A DNA stretch of 64,000 nt from Candidatus Omnitrophota bacterium (lineage in GTDB: Bacteria > Omnitrophota > JACPQZ01): the NCBI GenBank assembly GCA_016190205.1, contig JACPQZ010000076.1:4632-68631 (forward strand), read 5' to 3'. The position numbers and the translations under genes are program-made. This document shows, one piece after another, positions 24,282 to 35,502 of the stretch (positions are counted from its first letter, which is position 1; every line of letters begins with the position of its first letter). A model generated the notes under the pieces. It saw nothing but the letters and a program-made list of their open reading frames with translations, made no database searches and was not told the origin of the DNA.

Positions 24282-24412
24282 GGGGGGTCCTTTCGGGAGA
24301 CTTTATTATCTATTTTATTGCTTCATCAACTTTTCATTCGGTACCATCATTCGGTACCAGGTACCGGATAGGGTTTAAACTGGGTTTCACTGTCGTGCCA
24401 GGCACCGAAACT

Positions 24413-25268: not shown

Positions 25269-25302
25269 CTCTGTAATGTTATCATATACTGATAACAAAA
25301 GC

Positions 25303-25461
25303 AACTCATCTTATTTCACCTCATTCGGAGAAATGAGGACGGTCTTGCCGTTTTTCCATATCGCCAGCGGCCGGCCTGTTTTCTTATGCCGCTTAACCAC
25401 CTCCCGAACCGCTTTTTTCAGAGCCGCTTCAGCTTTATCCTGCAAAGACATTCTTTTTTTC
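25303..25461 (-). CDS. Small ORF (51 aa) immediately downstream of the zeta-toxin gene; possible partner protein
   Basis: Minus-strand ATG at 25461 gives MKKRMSLQDKAEAALKKAVREVVKRHKKTGRPLAIWKNGKTVLISPNEVK. It starts 3 nt after the zeta stop. It is not in the ORF track because it is under 60 aa. Confidence 0.3.
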
Positions 25462-25463
25462 AT

Positions 25464-26042
25464 TTACCGTCTCGCACTTCTTTGAACCATCGCAAATAAA
25501 TCATCGTTCATTATTTCTCTGTGACCGTTTCGTTTTTTCGCGATCAATACCGGCTTCGACTTGGAATTATCAAACAACATCCAGGAATCGAGCAATGGCT
25601 CATACAGGTTGGAAAAATTATCGAGGCCGCGAGTGAATCTTCTGCGCACGTCTTCCGCAGGCACATGATGGCCGCCTTCCGCCACCCGGTCTTTAATACG
25701 TGCGATCGCCAGTTCCGCGCTCGGAATCCAGAGAAAGAAAAGATGAACCGTATAGCCTTTCTTTTTTAGATCAGTGAGTAGAGTTGCGTAGGATTTACCG
25801 GATAAAGTCGTCTCAAATGCAAAAACAACGCCGCGCCTGGCGTATTCATGGATCTCATGAAGAACGAGCTTACCGGCTTTGATCGCCGCGGCGCGAGGCC
25901 CAAAGGGGGCCAGTCCTTGAGCGATGAGGTCTGCATTTACAAAATTCGGGCAATTCACATAATCCGGTAAGAACAGCCTCGCAAAGGTCGTCTTACCCGA
26001 TCCATTGGGTCCCGCAATAATGTAAACCGCTTTATGCTTCAT
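25464..26042 (-). CDS. Zeta-toxin family P-loop kinase (AAA-like)
   Basis: Walker A motif IIAGPNGSGKTT and zeta-toxin family architecture in 192 aa. Confidence 0.75.
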   Translation of the reverse strand: MKHKAVYIIAGPNGSGKTTFARLFLPDYVNCPNFVNADLIAQGLAPFGPRAAAIKAGKLVLHEIHEYARRGVVFAFETTLSGKSYATLLTDLKKKGYTVHLFFLWIPSAELAIARIKDRVAEGGHHVPAEDVRRRFTRGLDNFSNLYEPLLDSWMLFDNSKSKPVLIAKKRNGHREIMNDDLFAMVQRSARR

Positions 26043-26077
26043 AGTCGGCCTGTTCAGCCTTAGTGAACGGAGTCATG

Positions 26078-26878: not shown

Positions 26879-27004
26879 AACTCATCTTTCGGTACCAGGT
26901 ACAAAAGTGCCACTTATATACTGATAACAAAAGCAACTCATCGCGATTTGGCGCCGCAGTCCGTACAATGACATCGAACCTGGTACCTATAGGTAAAAGT
27001 CATC

Positions 27005-28319: not shown

Positions 28320-28384
28320 GCCATGTTAAACAATAAAAACTCTCTAACCTTCATACTGAGTGCCTATTGTTTCACTTTATGAGC

Positions 28385-28496
28385 TCTGCATTTACAAAAT
28401 TCGGGCAATTCACATAATCCGGTAAGAACAGTCTCGCAAAGGTCGTCTTACCCGATCCATTTGTCCCGCGATGATGTAAACCGCTTTGTGCTTCAT
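28385..28496 (-). pseudogene. Truncated, frameshifted duplicate of the 5-prime end of the zeta-toxin gene
   Basis: About 130 bp at 28385-28515 are about 95% identical to 25930-26060, which is the upstream region plus the first ~37 codons of the zeta gene. The copy has a 1-nt deletion and substitutions and no continuation. Confidence 0.65.
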
Positions 28497-28549
28497 AGTC
28501 GGCCTGTGCAGCCCTGGCGAACGCTAGGATATAACACCGCCATGCGGGC

Positions 28550-28585
28550 GGGGTCGACGGGCGCCATACGCGCTTTCGCGCTACT
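28550..28585. repeat. 36-nt direct repeat, copy 1 (GGGGTCGACGGGCGCCATACGCGCTTTCGCGCTACT); its first 12 nt equal the tRNA-Asp 3-prime end
   Basis: 34/36 identity with copy 2 at 29672..29707. The two copies flank the yjbQ-tag segment. Confidence 0.85.
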
Positions 28586-28606
28586 TACCAGGTGCAAAAG
28601 TGCCAC

Positions 28607-29020
28607 TTAATTTCCCATCACCTTGACCACGACGCGTTTTTTGCGCTTGCCGTCAAATTCGGCGTAAAAAATCTGCTCCCAGGGGCCTAGATCCAGCTTC
28701 CCCCCGGTAACAGGCAGGACCGCCTGATGGTGAACCAAGGTGCGTTTGAGATGGGCGTCGCCGTTGTCCTCTCCCGTGAGGTGGTGGCGGTAGTCCTCGC
28801 GGAAAGGCGCGAGCCGCTCTAAAAGCTCCCATAAATCCTCCCACAGCCCTTCCTCGTTATCGTTCACCCAAATCCCGGCAGTAATGTGCATGGCCGAGAC
28901 CAGGCACATTCCTTCCTGGACGCCGCTTTTTTTGACGATCCCCTCGAGCTTGTCCGTGATATTGACCAGATCCCTGCGCTTGGGGGTGTTAAACCAAAGG
29001 TATTCGGTGAGGGTGGTCAT
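28607..29020 (-). CDS. yjbQ: YjbQ/UPF0047 family protein (secondary thiamine-phosphate synthase-like)
   Basis: Reads [50 protein letters not shown]..., typical of UPF0047. Confidence 0.7.
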
Positions 29021-29022
29021 GA

Positions 29023-29616
29023 TTATGGGTGCTGCACTTCGCGGTGTCTGAAACAACTGACAAGGTGATCGTTCACCATGCCTGTCGCCTGCATGTGGGC
29101 ATAGCAGATGGTGGATCCTACGAACCGGAAGCCTTTCTCCTTAAGGGCATGGCTCAAGGCGTCGGACTCTGACGTTCGCGCGGGCAAGTCTTTTAGAGAC
29201 CTGCGCTTGTTCTGGATGGGCTTGCCGTCCACAAACCGCCATATAAAGGAAGAGAAACTCCTTTCCTCTTTTTGAATCTTGAGAAAAGCCCGAGCGTTTG
29301 TGATCGCCGCTTCGATCTTGAGACGGTTACGGATGATGCCAGTATTTTGAAGCAACCGGCTCACGTCACGCCTGCCATAGCGGGCTATTTTCTCGGCGTC
29401 GAACCCATGGAAAGCCTTGCGGTAATTTTCCCGCTTTTTAAGCACCGTGAGCCAGCTTAAACCCGCCTGTGCCCCTTCGAGCACTAAAAATTCAAACAAC
29501 TTGCCGTCGTCATACAAAGGCACTCCCCATTCCCGGTCGTGGTAAGCTCGCATGAGGGGATCGGATTCAGCCCATTCACAGCGGTGGTTGGCAGACATGT
29601 ATCGAAATGAAGCCAA
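29023..29616 (-). CDS. tag: DNA-3-methyladenine glycosylase I
   Basis: Contains [45 protein letters not shown], a close match to Tag. Confidence 0.85.
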
Positions 29617-29671
29617 TTATCCTTACCAGGTACAAGAGTGCCACGTCGAATTGACGACGGGAAATAATTAC

Positions 29672-29707
29672 GGGGTCGACGGGCGCCATACGCGCCTTTG
29701 CGCTACT
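29672..29707. repeat. 36-nt direct repeat, copy 2 (GGGGTCGACGGGCGCCATACGCGCCTTTGCGCTACT)
   Basis: See copy 1 at 28550..28585. Confidence 0.85.
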
Positions 29708-29757
29708 GGCACTTCCCTGGCGTGCCAGGCACCGAAGGCCGAAGAGAAGAAAAGAAA

Positions 29758-29979
29758 TTAAGCTGCCTTCAACCCCTGCAACGTTCTTTTCCGAAATCCT
29801 ATGATGGTCAACCCTACCACTTCTTTTTTCTTTTGGTCGTAACGGACGATGACACCCTCTCCGATATCCACACCTACTGCGGGACGTGGTTTGCCGACGG
29901 AAATATAAAGGACATCGGCTTCCTCGTCGTATTCCCAATTCAATGAGCGTTTTCCCTCAAGAATTCTCAGCGCTTCCAT
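29758..29979 (-). CDS. DUF2283 family small protein (antitoxin-like)
   Basis: 73 aa with YDEEADVLYISV and VVGLTII segments, the DUF2283 pattern. It overlaps the upstream gene. Confidence 0.55.
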   Translation of the reverse strand: MEALRILEGKRSLNWEYDEEADVLYISVGKPRPAVGVDIGEGVIVRYDQKKKEVVGLTIIGFRKRTLQGLKAA

Positions 29980-30278
29980 ATTACCTCCCTCCTCTTCGAA
30001 AAGGAGCCCGCAAAATATGCTGTTAGAACAAATCCTTCTTGTCCGCCAGCCTCTTTGTAGGCAACCACCAAGTGCTTTTGCGTAAGGGGCGTTTTTGAAT
30101 AGAATCGCACGGCCAGCAACTCGCCGAAATCACCTTCCTGGATTAAATCAGGGTCTGAAATGGTTTCCACGACCCTATCCCTCTGACCCTCCATTTCCGG
30201 ATGGCGCCTCAGAATGTGCTCCCACCGCTCGCGCGTTAAGCGGATTGGGATCCCTTTCTTAGAATGAATAATAATCAT
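29967..30278 (-). CDS. Small protein paired with DUF2283 (DUF4258-like toxin candidate)
   Basis: 103-aa ORF overlapping the DUF2283 gene by 13 nt. It has the genomic arrangement typical of DUF4258/DUF2283 pairs. The family assignment is tentative. Confidence 0.4.
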   Translation of the reverse strand: MIIIHSKKGIPIRLTRERWEHILRRHPEMEGQRDRVVETISDPDLIQEGDFGELLAVRFYSKTPLTQKHLVVAYKEAGGQEGFVLTAYFAGSFSKRREVIWKR

Positions 30279-30430
30279 CTATCTAACTGAACCGGTTTAT
30301 TTCATCCACTTCCCAATGCGCGTATTTCGTATGCGCTCCAAGTGTCCCTGGCGTACCAGGCACCGACAATTTAATTTTCAGTTTTAGTGCCAGTTAAAAT
30401 GGAATTGTCGTGCGCTCCTGGCTCCAGAGT

Positions 30431-31258
30431 TTAAACTCCGGGGTTGTTATCAGTGCTTGGTACCGTGTTGCCGGGTACTGTATTTTTCCTTTCCGAAGAC
30501 CGGCGGTAAGGTTTTAATTCCTCATCACTTTGGTAATCTCTAATGATTTCGCGAACCCGTTGGCTTATTGAAGAGGAATCAGTTATAACTGGACCACGAG
30601 CGATTAACTTCCGCTCTTCTGAGAATGTGTTTCCGCTTTTATCTTTATAACAAACCGAAATAATTAGAAAAGGCGGCCTCTCAGGCTCAAATATACTCCC
30701 TTTCTCGGAAATTGGAATCTCACGTTCTTCTTCAGGAGCTATTATATAGTGGAATTTTGGTTGGCGCCCTTTCTTATAAATTTGGGAAATATGCTCACCA
30801 TCAACAATGTATGGGCGAGGAGCACTAAGATCAAAATATTCATGTACCCCTGTGATAGGATTAACAATCACGACCTCGGAATCTAACGCCTCGCCGGTAC
30901 CGATATTTTTTAGAGTTACTTTTCCAACGCCGTTTTCAATATCGACAATTTCATAGCGGCTTACAACTAATCGAGGCTCATATGAATCAGCGCGCTTGGA
31001 TGCAGTCACAACGAGGAGAATCGTAGAAATAAGTAAAGAGAGCAGTGCTGTTAACGTTGCTGGTTGCACATTTCCAAACCTGTCTCTCTCCCAGGAGAAA
31101 AAAATTATTATGCACGCAATCAGATAAATCCAGATCCAAGTTTTGATAGGAAGAGTATTCACAATAAGTGACGGTAGGAAAAAATAACCTGAAATGAAAA
31201 ATGGCAATGGTAGGAGTAATGATGCAACTAAGTGCCGCAATAAGGTCATTATTCCCAT
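30431..31258 (-). CDS. Hypothetical membrane protein in an AT-rich (foreign-looking) segment
   Basis: 275-aa ORF with N-terminal transmembrane helices. Local GC is visibly lower than its surroundings. Tandem GTTAACACA repeats lie in its upstream region. Confidence 0.45.
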   Translation of the reverse strand: MGIMTLLRHLVASLLLPLPFFISGYFFLPSLIVNTLPIKTWIWIYLIACIIIFFSWERDRFGNVQPATLTALLSLLISTILLVVTASKRADSYEPRLVVSRYEIVDIENGVGKVTLKNIGTGEALDSEVVIVNPITGVHEYFDLSAPRPYIVDGEHISQIYKKGRQPKFHYIIAPEEEREIPISEKGSIFEPERPPFLIISVCYKDKSGNTFSEERKLIARGPVITDSSSISQRVREIIRDYQSDEELKPYRRSSERKNTVPGNTVPSTDNNPGV

Positions 31259-31711
31259 ACCGACATTCTTGATAGGTGCGCTATTGTTAACACAATGTTA
31301 ACACAGGTCTATTTTATATAAGCAGGGAGTTATGGCTTAATCATCATTACCACTTCTGTATATTTAAAGTATGCATAACGGAGTCGACGGGATTTGGCGG
31401 TTTGGGCTCGCCACTTAGTCGATTACTCCTTCGGTTATCGGTGTTCGGTGCTCGGTTATCGCAAGAAAAAGAAATATTATGAGCCTTCAGCCGTCGGCTA
31501 TCTGCCTTGGGCTTTTGCTGATGGCTGATGGCTGATAGCCAACAGAGTTTGCGAGCACCGATAACCGATCCACGATCACCGAATCAAATGCTCGCCCAAA
31601 CTCGGCCACTCGCCGCGCCAAGGAAGGCGGTGCTCCCATATAGGTCGCACCGCATGTGTTGGGGGGCGCGGCTCACTTCAAATCCCGTCGACCTTTTGAC
31701 GGAAAAGAAGA

Positions 31712-31787
31712 CGGGGTCGACGGGATTTGAACCCGCGGTCTCCTGATCGACAGTCAGGCGCTTTAAGCCGGACTAAGCTACGACCCC
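31712..31787 (-). tRNA. tRNA-Asp (anticodon GTC)
   Basis: Reverse complement reads GGGGTCGTAGCTTAGTCCGGCTTAAAGCGCCTGACTGTCGATCAGGAGACCGCGGGTTCAAATCCCGTCGACCCCG. It folds as a cloverleaf with anticodon loop CTGTCGA. Confidence 0.85.
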
Positions 31788-32023: not shown

Positions 32024-32485
32024 TCACGAATAACCTGATTTTCTTTTCTTCACGATTCGCGCCAGATCCAGTTTGTCCTGCGGGCGTCCGCTTGCCTTTT
32101 TAGACAGTATGAGCTCATCGAGGCCCATGATGTTGATGGCGATTTTCCCATACCGGCTATGTCTCCGGTGTTTCCATGCCTCAATTGCAGAGACCCCCGG
32201 CACCTTAATCAAAATGTCCACTCTTACCGGCGCAATACCTATTTGAAGTATTACGGATTGATCCTGAAAATCACCCGGGCGCACCCCTTTCAGAGGAGCA
32301 CCATAGAACTTCAGGGCCTTGTAGACGCTGCGTGGATCGTTCAGTTCTGCCGGGATCCAGATGTCCAGATCTTTCGTAAATCGGGGCTCGGAATAAAATA
32401 TAACGGCGTGAGCGCCGATAACAAGATACTTGATCTTATGCGCGTTTAAGGCGCTGAACAGATCTTCGTAATCGGAGCTCGGCAA
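32024..32485 (-). CDS. Pol-beta-superfamily nucleotidyltransferase-fold protein, paralog of 24413..24943
   Basis: Contains YLVIGAHAVIFYSEPRFTKDLDIWI (G...D-x-D motif) and a C-terminal SGRPQDKLDL segment. It has the same architecture as the first nucleotidyltransferase gene. Confidence 0.5.
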   Translation of the reverse strand: MPSSDYEDLFSALNAHKIKYLVIGAHAVIFYSEPRFTKDLDIWIPAELNDPRSVYKALKFYGAPLKGVRPGDFQDQSVILQIGIAPVRVDILIKVPGVSAIEAWKHRRHSRYGKIAINIMGLDELILSKKASGRPQDKLDLARIVKKRKSGYS

Positions 32486-32633
32486 CTGGCTTCCCCCGCA
32501 TCTTCAGAAACGTACTGACCATAGCCCAAGCGGCTTCAAAACGCGCCGCCGCACCCGCACGCCGCCAAAACCACCGGTCAAACGCATCGGCTTCTTTAAA
32601 AGATTTCGACTTGTGAATCCATGTCTTGCTCAT
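32436..32633 (-). CDS. Small ORF overlapping the 5-prime end of the second nucleotidyltransferase gene (possible antitoxin partner)
   Basis: 65-aa ORF with a 50-nt overlap onto the downstream nucleotidyltransferase gene. No recognisable domain. Confidence 0.25.
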   Translation of the reverse strand: MSKTWIHKSKSFKEADAFDRWFWRRAGAAARFEAAWAMVSTFLKMRGKPVAELRLRRSVQRLKRA

Positions 32634-32959: not shown

Positions 32960-34972
32960 TTACTCGAAAACAACGTCCGCAATCCAAATCGTCCGCGACC
33001 CAGCGGCTCCCTTGACGCCGGCCTCATCCGCAAGAAGAATATTCGAGATGCGCGACGCGTCGAGCCGGCCGTCCTGGCGTTTCTTCTCGTCCACCGAAAG
33101 GTCGTTCAAGGGGTACTCAAAACGCTTCCATTCGGCACCCACCGGCACCATGACAAAGAAAGCCTCTCCCCCGCTCTCCTCCACTTGGACGAACACCTGG
33201 CCGTCGCGGTCGCTCCGCGCCCAAAAGCCAAGGGTACGGGCATCCCGCAGCCGGTCTGACGGGAGCGGCTTGACCGCCCAGATCCACTGGCCCTGGTAAT
33301 GGTAGTTCCATTGCATGGACGTCGTGCCGACCGCCGGCCCCTCTGAAACGGCTGTCACGCTGGTGCCGGGAGAGACGGTAAAAACATCAGCCGCTTTTGA
33401 AAAATCAAGCTGGAAGCTGCCAGGCCTATCCTGCCGCGTCTGGGGCACAAGGGGTGCCGGCTCATGCCGGGCACCGGAGTCAACGTCATCTTTAGGGCCG
33501 CCGGCAAGAACCGCCCTCCATTCCTCCCAGCCGAGCTTCGGACGCAGAGAGCTATCAAAGAATCCAATGTTCCGCCAGATGAGATTTGCCTCGCTTCCGG
33601 GAACCCCCGACATCTTCTCAAATAGCGCATCATAATCAACGGCTAAAAACCAGGTTACAAAGAGCCAGCCGTCACGCCGGGCGAATCGGCCGAGATCCCT
33701 TACGTAATCGGCCTGTGTCTTTTCATCTCCGTACATCTTGAGCCCGTAGGTCGGGATGGAGATATCACGGGTCGTGTAGCCTGTCTCGCAGATCGCGACG
33801 GGTTTTCGGGTGTATCCGCGCAGCCACTCGAATGGCTCGCGCCAAGCGCCCGGCGCCGCGGGAAGGGGCGGGTCACCCATGGCCTCGCCGAAAGACGACG
33901 TGTACGGATAGAAACTAAGTCCCAGGTAGTCACATTTTTCAACGAGTGGCTTCACACGCTCGGCGACGTCGGGCCTGCGCAACGACCCCAAACCGAAGGA
34001 GATACCGATCCAAAGATCCGGATACTCCTCTTTCAGACGGCTATACACATAATCAAAGAGCGCTTCAAACTGCGGCCAGCGAGTAGGATCATTCCGAGCA
34101 AGTTCACCGGCTTCGATGCCAACGTTGAGGAACTTCGGGTGAAACTTTTCGACCGCCTGGCGGGCGTACCTCAAATACGCCTCTTTGACTGTGGGGTTAT
34201 CCAACCCTGCGCCTTGCAGTTCCTTCGGAAGCGGCGTCCCATCAAGTCCCCCTACGAGGCTCTTGCGGTCTGTGGCGAGAGGGGCCAACCCCACGTACAC
34301 CACATGTCCCTTGGGGATTCTCCGTACCTCGTCATCCCACTTCTCACCCGCCTTGCCCGAAATCACCCGGTCGGCGAGGAGGTCATCCCACGGCACTCCG
34401 TCGTCGAAATGCAGGGCATAGAGCGTGGAATGGGGCACGATGATTTCGCGTGTGCGGGTCACCGCCTCGAGTGTGAAGTCATACGGAAAAGGGGTAAAAC
34501 CAAAGTAGGGGGCGTCCTCCGGGTCCGGTTTTCCGGCCCAGGCAGTCCCAGTGAATGTGACTGCGTTTGAAGTATCCTTTGAAGTTACCCTTTCGCTCTC
34601 CATTGAGACCGTACCTTCTAGAAACCTGACGGCGATCCCCTCGACCCTCCGTCCCTGCTCCCAATCCAGCAAGCCGGGGGCAAAGGTCTTGTGACTATAT
34701 GTTACGCGGATCACCCCATCCACCCGGCCATAGAGTTTCAACGCCTCTTTACGAAGGCGTTTATGGAGAGTGGAGTCGGAAACGGGAAACAAACCGCTGG
34801 CTGCCTCTACGCCGACCGGGCCGAGTTCTTCGTATCGCTCAGCCGGTGCGAGTTGGCTTATCAGGAAATTATCTTTTGAGATAGAGCGTTCGGGTCCGGC
34901 AATGGGAGACACAGCACACCCCAATAAGGAGATCCCGAACATGAGACCTGCCATCCCTAATCTCATATTCAT
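32960..34972 (-). CDS. Lipoprotein with a TIM-barrel glycoside-hydrolase-like domain and a C-terminal carbohydrate-binding-like domain
   Basis: Has a lipobox (LLGCAV), a GH-like segment with ICETGY (putative catalytic Glu) and an aromatic-rich beta domain at the C-terminus. Confidence 0.5.
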   Translation of the reverse strand: MNMRLGMAGLMFGISLLGCAVSPIAGPERSISKDNFLISQLAPAERYEELGPVGVEAASGLFPVSDSTLHKRLRKEALKLYGRVDGVIRVTYSHKTFAPGLLDWEQGRRVEGIAVRFLEGTVSMESERVTSKDTSNAVTFTGTAWAGKPDPEDAPYFGFTPFPYDFTLEAVTRTREIIVPHSTLYALHFDDGVPWDDLLADRVISGKAGEKWDDEVRRIPKGHVVYVGLAPLATDRKSLVGGLDGTPLPKELQGAGLDNPTVKEAYLRYARQAVEKFHPKFLNVGIEAGELARNDPTRWPQFEALFDYVYSRLKEEYPDLWIGISFGLGSLRRPDVAERVKPLVEKCDYLGLSFYPYTSSFGEAMGDPPLPAAPGAWREPFEWLRGYTRKPVAICETGYTTRDISIPTYGLKMYGDEKTQADYVRDLGRFARRDGWLFVTWFLAVDYDALFEKMSGVPGSEANLIWRNIGFFDSSLRPKLGWEEWRAVLAGGPKDDVDSGARHEPAPLVPQTRQDRPGSFQLDFSKAADVFTVSPGTSVTAVSEGPAVGTTSMQWNYHYQGQWIWAVKPLPSDRLRDARTLGFWARSDRDGQVFVQVEESGGEAFFVMVPVGAEWKRFEYPLNDLSVDEKKRQDGRLDASRISNILLADEAGVKGAAGSRTIWIADVVFE

Positions 34973-35334
34973 TTGTACCGTGCCAGGCCCCTCTCATCCG
35001 TTACGTACTCATAGTCGACCACCACCCCGTCCCGAAACGTCACGGTGAGAGTCTGGCCGCTGCCACCCGATCGGCTCCAGGTGATGAGAAAAGGAATGCC
35101 AAAGACCTTTTCCACGCCGTGCCGATACACAAAGACCTCAGTCCCGGAAGGTTTGTAGATGACCTGCTGAGGTCTCCCGATCAAATTGACGATATCATCC
35201 TTAGTGCTGGTGCCAATCACGATCCTTTGAACCTCATGGGGATGAATCTCGGCCAGGCGGCCGTGCGAGGCGATCGAGCAGCCCGATACCCAGACGAACC
35301 CGAATAATAGAAGGATGTAGCCCTTGATTTTCAT
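34969..35334 (-). CDS. Small lipoprotein, BamE/SmpA-OmlA-like
   Basis: Has a lipobox (VSGCS) and a TKDDIVNLIGRP segment similar to the BamE fold. It overlaps the downstream lipoprotein gene in an ATGA arrangement. Confidence 0.4.
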   Translation of the reverse strand: MKIKGYILLLFGFVWVSGCSIASHGRLAEIHPHEVQRIVIGTSTKDDIVNLIGRPQQVIYKPSGTEVFVYRHGVEKVFGIPFLITWSRSGGSGQTLTVTFRDGVVVDYEYVTDERGLARYK

Positions 35335-35428
35335 GTAGTTATCACCTCTCTAAAGATGGCAATCGTGAGGGCAGATGGATTCGGCGGTTTGGCAGAGAAT
35401 CCATCTGCCCAATACATGTAAAGAACTC

Positions 35429-35502
35429 TGAGGGCAGATGGATTCGAACCATCGACACCCGCCTTAAAAGGGCGGTGCTCTACCAGACTGAGCTATGCCC
35501 CC
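35429..35502 (-). tRNA. tRNA-Lys (anticodon TTT)
   Basis: Reverse complement reads GGGGGCATAGCTCAGTCTGGTAGAGCACCGCCCTTTTAAGGCGGGTGTCGATGGTTCGAATCCATCTGCCCTCA. The 5-prime end abuts the frr stop codon. Confidence 0.85.

Follow-up and report, generated by a model that had tools for sequence, protein, structure and literature searches.

In Dehalococcoides, tandem islands downstream of ssrA have as their boundaries 20-bp copies of the 3' end of that gene, and ahead of every copy stands a conserved 15-bp motif on the element side with no alignment to ssrA itself (PMC3146451). They rely on the serine recombinase DsiB, with crossover in the T-loop, and 15 of them lack an integration module and have been discussed as cis-mobilisable or fixed (PMC3146451). 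A comparable locus was found in a 64-kb stretch of DNA (hereafter the window, meaning the whole stretch analysed) from a metagenome-assembled genome (MAG) whose annotation gives Candidatus Omnitrophica bacterium and locus tags of the form HYY14_; the contig measures 116 kb. Two direct repeats, A and B, carry a copy of the 3' end of a tRNA-Asp gene and bracket the genes yjbQ and tag in a run of small genes directly downstream of that tRNA. On balance, and with modest confidence, A and B are read here as the junction scars of two stacked, now integrase-less segments at tRNA-Asp. The locus is a probable small, decayed, integrase-less array of tRNA-linked islets, which is a well-known kind of structure and an ordinary genomic island.

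As in the Dehalococcoides islands, low-GC segments with no relation to one another are set apart by several direct copies of an RNA 3' end, all on the downstream side of the gene. Just upstream of each copy again stands a conserved motif of the element, without alignment to the RNA gene, and some units are without an integration module. Unlike those islands, the units here measure only 1.1 and 2.0 kb, the core is 13-14 bp, no unit carries a recombinase, the T-loop falls outside the identity block, and mobility is putative. The features that define the two segments, E1 (tRNA to B) and E2 (B to A), are as follows.

31712-31787, minus strand: tRNA-Asp(GTC), called by ARAGORN and Rfam; its low-coordinate 3' end is the source of the repeated core.
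28549-28585, minus strand: repeat A, a 13-nt core (28549-28561) and a 24-nt arm (28562-28585) with a GCGC-loop-GCGC mini-hairpin; proposed attR-like distal junction of the yjbQ-tag segment.
29671-29707, minus strand: repeat B, a 13-nt core (14 nt with position 29670) and a 24-nt arm with 2 loop mismatches relative to A; proposed junction of E1 and E2.
28607-29020, minus strand: yjbQ (YjbQ/UPF0047), 137 aa, E=4e-38, cargo of E2.
29023-29598, minus strand: tag (DNA-3-methyladenine glycosylase I, Tag/Adenine_glyco), 191 aa, E=1e-83, cargo of E2.
29708-31711, minus strand: segment E1, GC content 0.458, with a trailer hairpin, a membrane-like ORFan at 30431-31258 and a pair of genes for a 103-aa protein and a DUF2283 protein at 29758-30278.

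An earlier note on this DNA had described 36-nt direct repeats around yjbQ and tag, and their coordinates, their orientation and the identity of 34/36 (2 mismatches) all proved right. Extension by one base gives 37 nt with 35/37 identical positions, both mismatches lying in the loop of the 4-bp GCGC/GCGC hairpin, and none of 100 shuffles produced such a match. No third copy of the 37-nt repeat occurs in the window with up to 12 mismatches allowed, and a search to the left of 28549 for degenerate cores or arms gave no older boundaries. The plus-strand sequence CGGGGTCGACGGG at the start of the repeats is the reverse complement of the last 13 nt of tRNA-Asp, a stretch that comprises the 3' strands of both the T-stem and the acceptor stem together with the discriminator base. 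Identity with the tRNA end covers 13 nt in A and 14 nt in B, where it continues one base past the tRNA, so that the 12-nt match first noted is upheld and lengthened. The tRNA end had been placed on the same strand from 31712; the match holds, but it starts at 31713 (31712 with an extra C) and the tRNA gene is on the minus strand. All copies of the tRNA-Asp end lie in tRNA orientation on its 3' side, and an alignment of the four sites in that orientation shows that tRNA identity in A and B ends sharply at the boundary of T-loop and T-stem.

The identity is short (13-14 nt) and GC-rich, as would be expected if a GC-rich repeat just happened to look like a tRNA end, but such a chance resemblance is scarcely credible. 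The 12-mer GGGGTCGACGGG, with at most one mismatch, occurs five times in 64 kb against 0.67 expected, and 0/100 shuffles reach five; four of the five occurrences are tRNA-Asp itself and the three named copies (A, B and a partial copy, C, treated below). The 13-14-nt core is not present in the remainder of the 64 kb. Moreover, the match is tied precisely to the 3' terminus of the tRNA, shares its orientation and lies at most 3.2 kb downstream, and the probability of a given 13-mer in the 8-kb island is estimated at ~2e-4. The 12-nt identity is thus not common by chance, and repeats A and B are real and derived from the tRNA-Asp 3' end.

Next to the core, on the side nearer the tRNA, A and B share a 24-nt arm (AGTAGCGCrAAGsGCGTATGGCG in tRNA orientation) that is unlike the tRNA; the two arms are 22/24 identical, a score reached by 0/2000 shuffles. 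Read in tRNA orientation, each junction consists of the arm, the core CCCGTCGACCCCG(T) and the start of the next unit. A different account of such a conserved 37-nt unit is that it is a functional RNA or DNA signal kept by selection, either a transcript-end or processing element composed of the mini-hairpin and a tRNA-end mimic, or a protein-binding site. Its position is suggestive, since A follows the yjbQ stop and a 21-nt box (D4, described below), and B lies ~50 nt past the DUF2283 stop on the coding strand. Both mismatches keep the GCGC stem, a weak terminator-like hairpin overlaps the end of core A, a similar GC hairpin with another box (D3) follows the 30431-31258 gene, and tRNA-end mimics are present in the tRNA trailers of this genome. 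Yet there are only two copies in 64 kb and no Rfam family: Rfam gave nothing at the repeats, its sole matches in the window being the four tRNAs. The spacers fold no better than shuffles (z +0.2 to -1.5), no U-tract follows the hairpin, and a complementary 5' acceptor strand that could complete a tRNA-like helix is lacking. Selection for a signal of this kind is accordingly held to be improbable.

The DNA on the far side of each core bears further on the order of the units, and the relevant features are these.

29645-29670, minus strand: distal flank of core B, which resembles the tRNA-Asp trailer, with a U-rich TTATTTCCCGTC and a degenerate inverted core TCGACGTGG.
28586-28609, plus strand: box D4a, TACCAGGTGCAAAAGTGCCACTTA; abuts repeat A, overlaps the yjbQ stop codon and forms an inner direct-repeat pair with D4b.
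29624-29647, plus strand: box D4b, 25-26 nt from core B.

The B flank TAATTATTTCCCGTCGTCAATTCGACGTGG agrees with the tRNA-Asp trailer TCTTCTTTTCCGTCAAAAGGTCGACGGG at 17/24 positions when shifted by one base with respect to the core (p ~0.03). The distal flank of A is like neither the trailer nor the B flank, and after 26 nt it gives way to a truncated duplicate (92.5% identical) of a zeta-toxin gene's 5' end. GC content forms a mosaic, being 0.458 in E1, 0.535 in E2 and 0.507 in the rest of the island, with a step at B; the whole low-GC stretch ranges over 0.45-0.54 against 0.574 +/- 0.024 elsewhere. Similar proximal starts (the trailer and the B flank) combined with similar distal ends (the arms of A and B), with only the outermost junction abutting different DNA, form the pattern predicted by the successive insertion of two related elements. 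The tandem ssrA islands of Dehalococcoides were delimited by reasoning of this kind (PMC3146451). The locus further shows what is usual for a genomic island, namely a direct repeat of a tRNA 3' end in the same orientation at the distal boundary, atypical GC content and genes, and conserved element-side arms. Its gene content is also typical of islands, comprising a zeta toxin, a helix-turn-helix (HTH) protein, a weak nucleotidyltransferase-like protein, the pair of a DUF2283 and a weak nuclease-like protein, and the ORFan.

In the favoured account, A and B would be attR-type junctions left by site-specific recombination at the tRNA-Asp 3' end, where two related small elements would have inserted in succession into the last 13-14 bp of the gene. 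E2 (yjbQ-tag, ~1.1 kb) would have come first and E1 (~2 kb, with the ORFan and the DUF2283/weak nuclease-like pair) later, each insertion rebuilding the tRNA end and moving the earlier junction outward. The recombinase is presumed to be no longer nearby, and the segments would therefore be either fixed remnants or cis-mobilisable units in need of an integrase in trans. Any present-day recombination between A and B would yield a 1,122-bp circle carrying yjbQ-tag. In this predicted circle D4, the 21-nt box TACCAGGTrCAArAGTGCCAC, would stand in direct orientation to the left and right of the core, at a distance of 24-26 nt, a layout that would suit a purpose-built recombination site and may recall arm-type sites. 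A sigma-54 promoter reading of the D4 box (TGGCAC...TTGC) was rejected by inspection, the spacing being 3 nt too short.

If the account is correct, the locus would be a minimal example in Omnitrophota, a phylum in which hardly any mobile elements have been characterised, of the tRNA-linked accretion of integrase-less 1-2 kb packets with housekeeping-type cargo (a DNA glycosylase and YjbQ). It would be of value for island annotation in uncultured lineages and unsurprising to specialists.

Several observations weigh against stacked integration. No tyrosine or serine recombinase, excisionase or pseudogene of one was found by Pfam in all island open reading frames (ORFs) together with 29 flanking ORFs, nor any recombinase by PHROGs and NCBIfam in ten island-region ORFs (nine in the island and one between tRNA-Glu and tRNA-Val); an integrase gene inside the element, as a rule beside the tRNA, is a usual mark of an island that these scanned ORFs do not provide. 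Contigs from three metagenome runs contained no empty site, circular junction or variant arrangement. The core of 13-14 bp is short for a tRNA attachment (att) identity block, and it excludes the T-loop. A 21-mer of the repeat had no exact match in IMG/VR, and its only three matches in JGI metagenomes are unrelated chance occurrences within coding regions. The D3, D4 and D16 boxes of the island are interleaved with A and B, and other rearrangement processes act here. Finally, the tRNA-Asp trailer looks native because tRNA-Lys has the same design, yet a simple integration model makes that trailer element-derived; this tension would be resolved only if the attP regions of the elements carried flanks like those of a tRNA locus. 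The duplicated att sites proposed in the earlier note are retained as the favoured, putative reading of the two 36-nt repeats, where tRNA identity, the sharp boundary, the shared arm, the B flank and the GC step support them in spite of the missing integrase, excisionase and empty site. They are not retained for the third, partial copy, which belongs to the following features.

31677-31693, plus strand: the 3' end of tRNA-Asp in an exact inverted copy of 17 nt, beginning 18 nt past the tRNA and able to pair with that end or with 31379-31397.
31379-31397, minus strand: copy C, a direct copy of the tRNA-Asp 3' end, 18/20 identical including part of the T-loop.

The partial copy reported at 31381-31397 does exist at that position, but is more likely the 3' strand of a long hairpin in the tRNA-Asp trailer (31379-31711). 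Copy C and the inverted copy close a hairpin of ~315 nt that folds far better than shuffles (z = -6.4). The same design stands at tRNA-Lys (35429-35502; trailer 35366-35429): 18 nt past its 3' end comes an inverted copy of 14 nt, which a 14-nt loop separates from a direct copy of 17 nt without mismatches. There, too, the inverted copy could pair with either the tRNA end or the direct copy. A weak 7-bp version of the design is present at tRNA-Glu. Considering the exact inverted partner and the same design at tRNA-Lys, copy C is probably part of a trailer hairpin typical of this genome and not an att scar. The combination of inverted and direct copies was seen at 0/14 tRNAs in 1.3 Mb of other fetched loci. 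The trailer hairpins of tRNA-Asp and tRNA-Lys are the part of this locus most worth a further look. If the order of tRNA end, 18 nt, inverted copy and direct copy, present at two tRNA genes, were general in the lineage, it would bear on tRNA 3' processing or on the origin of att sites.

Inverted copies of a chromosomal target placed near a target copy are familiar from the hairpin attP of CTX-type phages, which exploit Xer recombinases, and from folded attC sites, in which the resulting stem imitates the duplex target. By analogy with attC x attI recombination in integrons and with CTX phage integration at dif, the units here might be recombinase-less cassettes inserted as folded single strands by a recombinase acting in trans, with a stem that imitates the duplex tRNA 3' end. 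The stretch from the tRNA to B indeed has the layout of site, 18-21 nt, inverted copy, cargo and site, and the stretch from B to A repeats it in degenerate form. Exact inverted copies begin 18 nt past both tRNA-Asp (17 bp) and tRNA-Lys (14 bp), shuffled sequences fold less well than the reconstituted E1 junction (z = -3.3), the units are small, of one orientation and without a recombinase, and other spacers of the island are imperfect palindromes on GTRCCWGGYAC. The likeness to the phage and attC sites is structural only, however: a tRNA end takes the place of dif or attI as the target, the scanned ORFs yielded no gene of Xer or IntI type, and the stems match the native tRNA, not the element arm. 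The inverted copies extend to T-loop bases of the genuine tRNA that lie outside the core of A and B, so that a free element would have a stem of only 10 bp. No significant structure is seen in the reconstituted E2 site (z ~ -1), the 'cargo' at tRNA-Lys would amount to 14 nt only, and integron R''/R' boxes are absent. Insertion through hairpin sites would account for the inverted copies and for small units without a recombinase, but is considered distinctly unlikely. In a weaker variant, such 'anti plus mimic' trailer hairpins would be a lineage-specific device for tRNA 3' processing that incidentally offers secondary att sites.

The alternatives considered (ALTERNATIVES) comprised an integron or a cluster of attC sites lacking an integron integrase (CALIN), a repetitive extragenic palindromic (REP)-like element, a terminator or processing signal and hairpin-based insertion. 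Integron cassettes and CALINs resemble the locus in their small, co-oriented, promoter-poor units without a recombinase and in repeated, partly palindromic spacers, but differ in that the spacers here lack the R''/R' boxes (RYYYAAC ... GTTRRRY) and fold no better than shuffles (z +0.2 to -2.2 in the test made for attC sites), the core is derived from a tRNA, and no IntI was found in the scanned ORFs. An integron or CALIN was rejected on these points. An insertion sequence or miniature inverted-repeat transposable element was likewise rejected, A and B being direct and not inverted repeats and the scanned ORFs containing no transposase. For comparison with REP sequences and bacterial interspersed mosaic elements, the repeat has two copies within 64 kb, both in the island. 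The 178-bp repeats at Escherichia coli tyrT, described by Egan and Landy in 1978, reportedly begin with the last ~19 nt of tRNA-Tyr and recur downstream of the tRNA gene with no integrase. The present locus resembles them in the recurrence of tRNA-end copies downstream of a tRNA gene; the tyrT repeats are, however, reportedly tandem and homologous throughout, whereas the intervening DNA here is unrelated and of differing composition.

A further explanation is a local rearrangement that was never site-specific, in which the displaced tRNA-Asp end and its trailer would have been duplicated and shuffled by homologous or illegitimate recombination, leaving A and B as paralogous fragments with no integrase ever involved. 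The region does hold other duplications, one of which adjoins A.

28379-28523, minus strand: truncated copy of the zeta-toxin gene 5' end and leader, 92.5% identical to 25924-26069, lying 26 nt from core A on its distal side, where the next, rearranged segment starts.

The zeta-toxin duplication amounts to 145 nt, and its two copies bracket ~2.3 kb containing the 188-aa gene, pirin and TylF, a layout as a Campbell-type insertion or unequal recombination would leave. In addition, 27 nt are exactly duplicated at 25284-25310 and 26916-26942. The former copy belongs to a perfect palindrome, GTTATCA-GTATA-TGATAAC, which stands upstream of the HTH gene and is probably the operator of that gene, while the latter is broken in mid-palindrome, abuts a D4 box and lies upstream of the TylF methyltransferase gene. 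The near-palindrome GTRCCWGGYAC occurs in five copies against 0.05 expected, all between 24.3 and 30.4 kb (24354, 24395, 26892, 29722 and 30353). The boxes of the island, D4 at 26893, 28586 and 29624, D3 at 24384, 29711 and 30342, and D16 at 24345 and 26883, are intergenic, centred on CCAGG and often paired around spacers of 20-100 nt, for example as the 10-bp inverted repeat GGTACCAGGT/ACCTGGTACC at 26891 and 26979. The GTRCCWGGYAC boxes together with the 145-nt and 27-nt duplicated fragments indicate that other rearrangements act in the region.

For a local rearrangement speak the zeta-toxin duplicate next to A, the exact duplicate of a promoter or operator, the abutment of D4 boxes on unrelated fragments, the trailer-like sequence that B keeps past its core, the scanned ORFs without an integrase, and the reported precedent of tRNA 3'-end copies lacking an integrase at tyrT. 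However, the segments between the copies are unrelated and differ in GC content (0.458 vs 0.535), and so they are not duplicates of a single unit. Only ~37 nt are homologous, with a sharp edge at a structural boundary of the tRNA and the same foreign arm in both copies. Instead of being colinear, the two pairs of repeats (36-nt and D4) are nested, and a single Campbell-type homologous insertion cannot give such nesting. Local rearrangement as the origin of A and B is thus regarded as unlikely, though a real possibility, and stacked integration at tRNA-Asp remains the preferred account.

The mini-hairpin of the repeat arm has a counterpart elsewhere in E1. The GC mini-hairpin and D3 box at 29692-29740 have a second, composite occurrence at 30318-30371 (GCGCGTA-TTTCG-TATGCGC ... 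CCCTGGCGTACCAGGCACCGA), downstream of the 30431-31258 gene. This recurrence suggests that the distal half of the repeat arm may belong to a D3-type spacer module. The D3 and D4 box patterns had 0 matches in IMG/VR, and a 24-mer of the repeat had 0 exact matches in GTDB representative genomes.

An empty-site comparison requires close relatives, and in this practically unsampled lineage none close enough was found, the best matches being 55% for Frr and 53% for the flanking 670-aa protein. In the Frr-anchored loci of other Omnitrophota, frr is followed by tRNA-Lys, tRNA-Leu and tRNA-Gly, which is a different order. For ten island proteins, the 90%-identity clusters had no members outside the MAG of this organism and its Logan contigs. 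Those contigs, from SRR12113385, SRR12113425 and SRR12113433, are 99.9-100% identical to the window and colinear with it, and they break at repeats and not at alternative junctions. The best homologues of tag are ~70-74% identical and come from several phyla, and homologues in two other Omnitrophota MAGs stand in different contexts, without yjbQ and without a tRNA. The one in GCA_016206805.1 (JACQQX010000029.1; an Omnitrophota MAG) is 73% identical and has a core-like context beside a gene for an HI0933-like flavoprotein, with no yjbQ. It lies ~5.5 kb from ZnuA/ABC-3 genes, and in the present window those genes are 10-15 kb to the left of the island. This context suggests that tag moved or was re-acquired in this genome.

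The island as a whole extends over ~23.0-31.3 kb directly downstream of tRNA-Asp, and all its genes are small and on the minus strand, with an abundance of toxin-antitoxin genes. In order, they begin with a DUF5674 protein and a neighbouring small gene, an MshEN-domain protein, a DUF2204-like protein and the HTH protein, where the assignment of the nucleotidyltransferase-like DUF2204 protein is weak and under the Pfam cut-off. The zeta toxin with a 50-aa partner (the downstream ORF), the TylF methyltransferase, pirin, the 188-aa protein of no assigned family, yjbQ and tag follow. Beyond tag come the DUF2283 protein (gene at 29758-29979) paired with the 103-aa protein, whose match to the PBECR2 nuclease is weak and sub-threshold, and then the 272-aa ORFan. 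The latter, at 30431-31258, is the first gene after tRNA-Asp, with 272-275 aa and a GC content of 0.41, and it lacks any homologue in a collection of 5.8 billion proteins and matches neither Pfam nor NCBIfam. Its gene calls differ, giving 212 aa in NCBI and 272 aa in Logan.

Other probable imports, at 32024-32633 and 32960-35334, break up the cluster of tRNA genes (Lys, Glu, Val, Asp). Between tRNA-Glu and tRNA-Val lie a 65-aa ORF and a gene with a weak, sub-threshold likeness to nucleotidyltransferases (DUF6036/DUF2204). The interval between tRNA-Lys and tRNA-Glu holds the 670-aa protein and a 121-aa ORF; homologues of the former are at most 53% identical, and the one context examined is a polysaccharide-export cluster.

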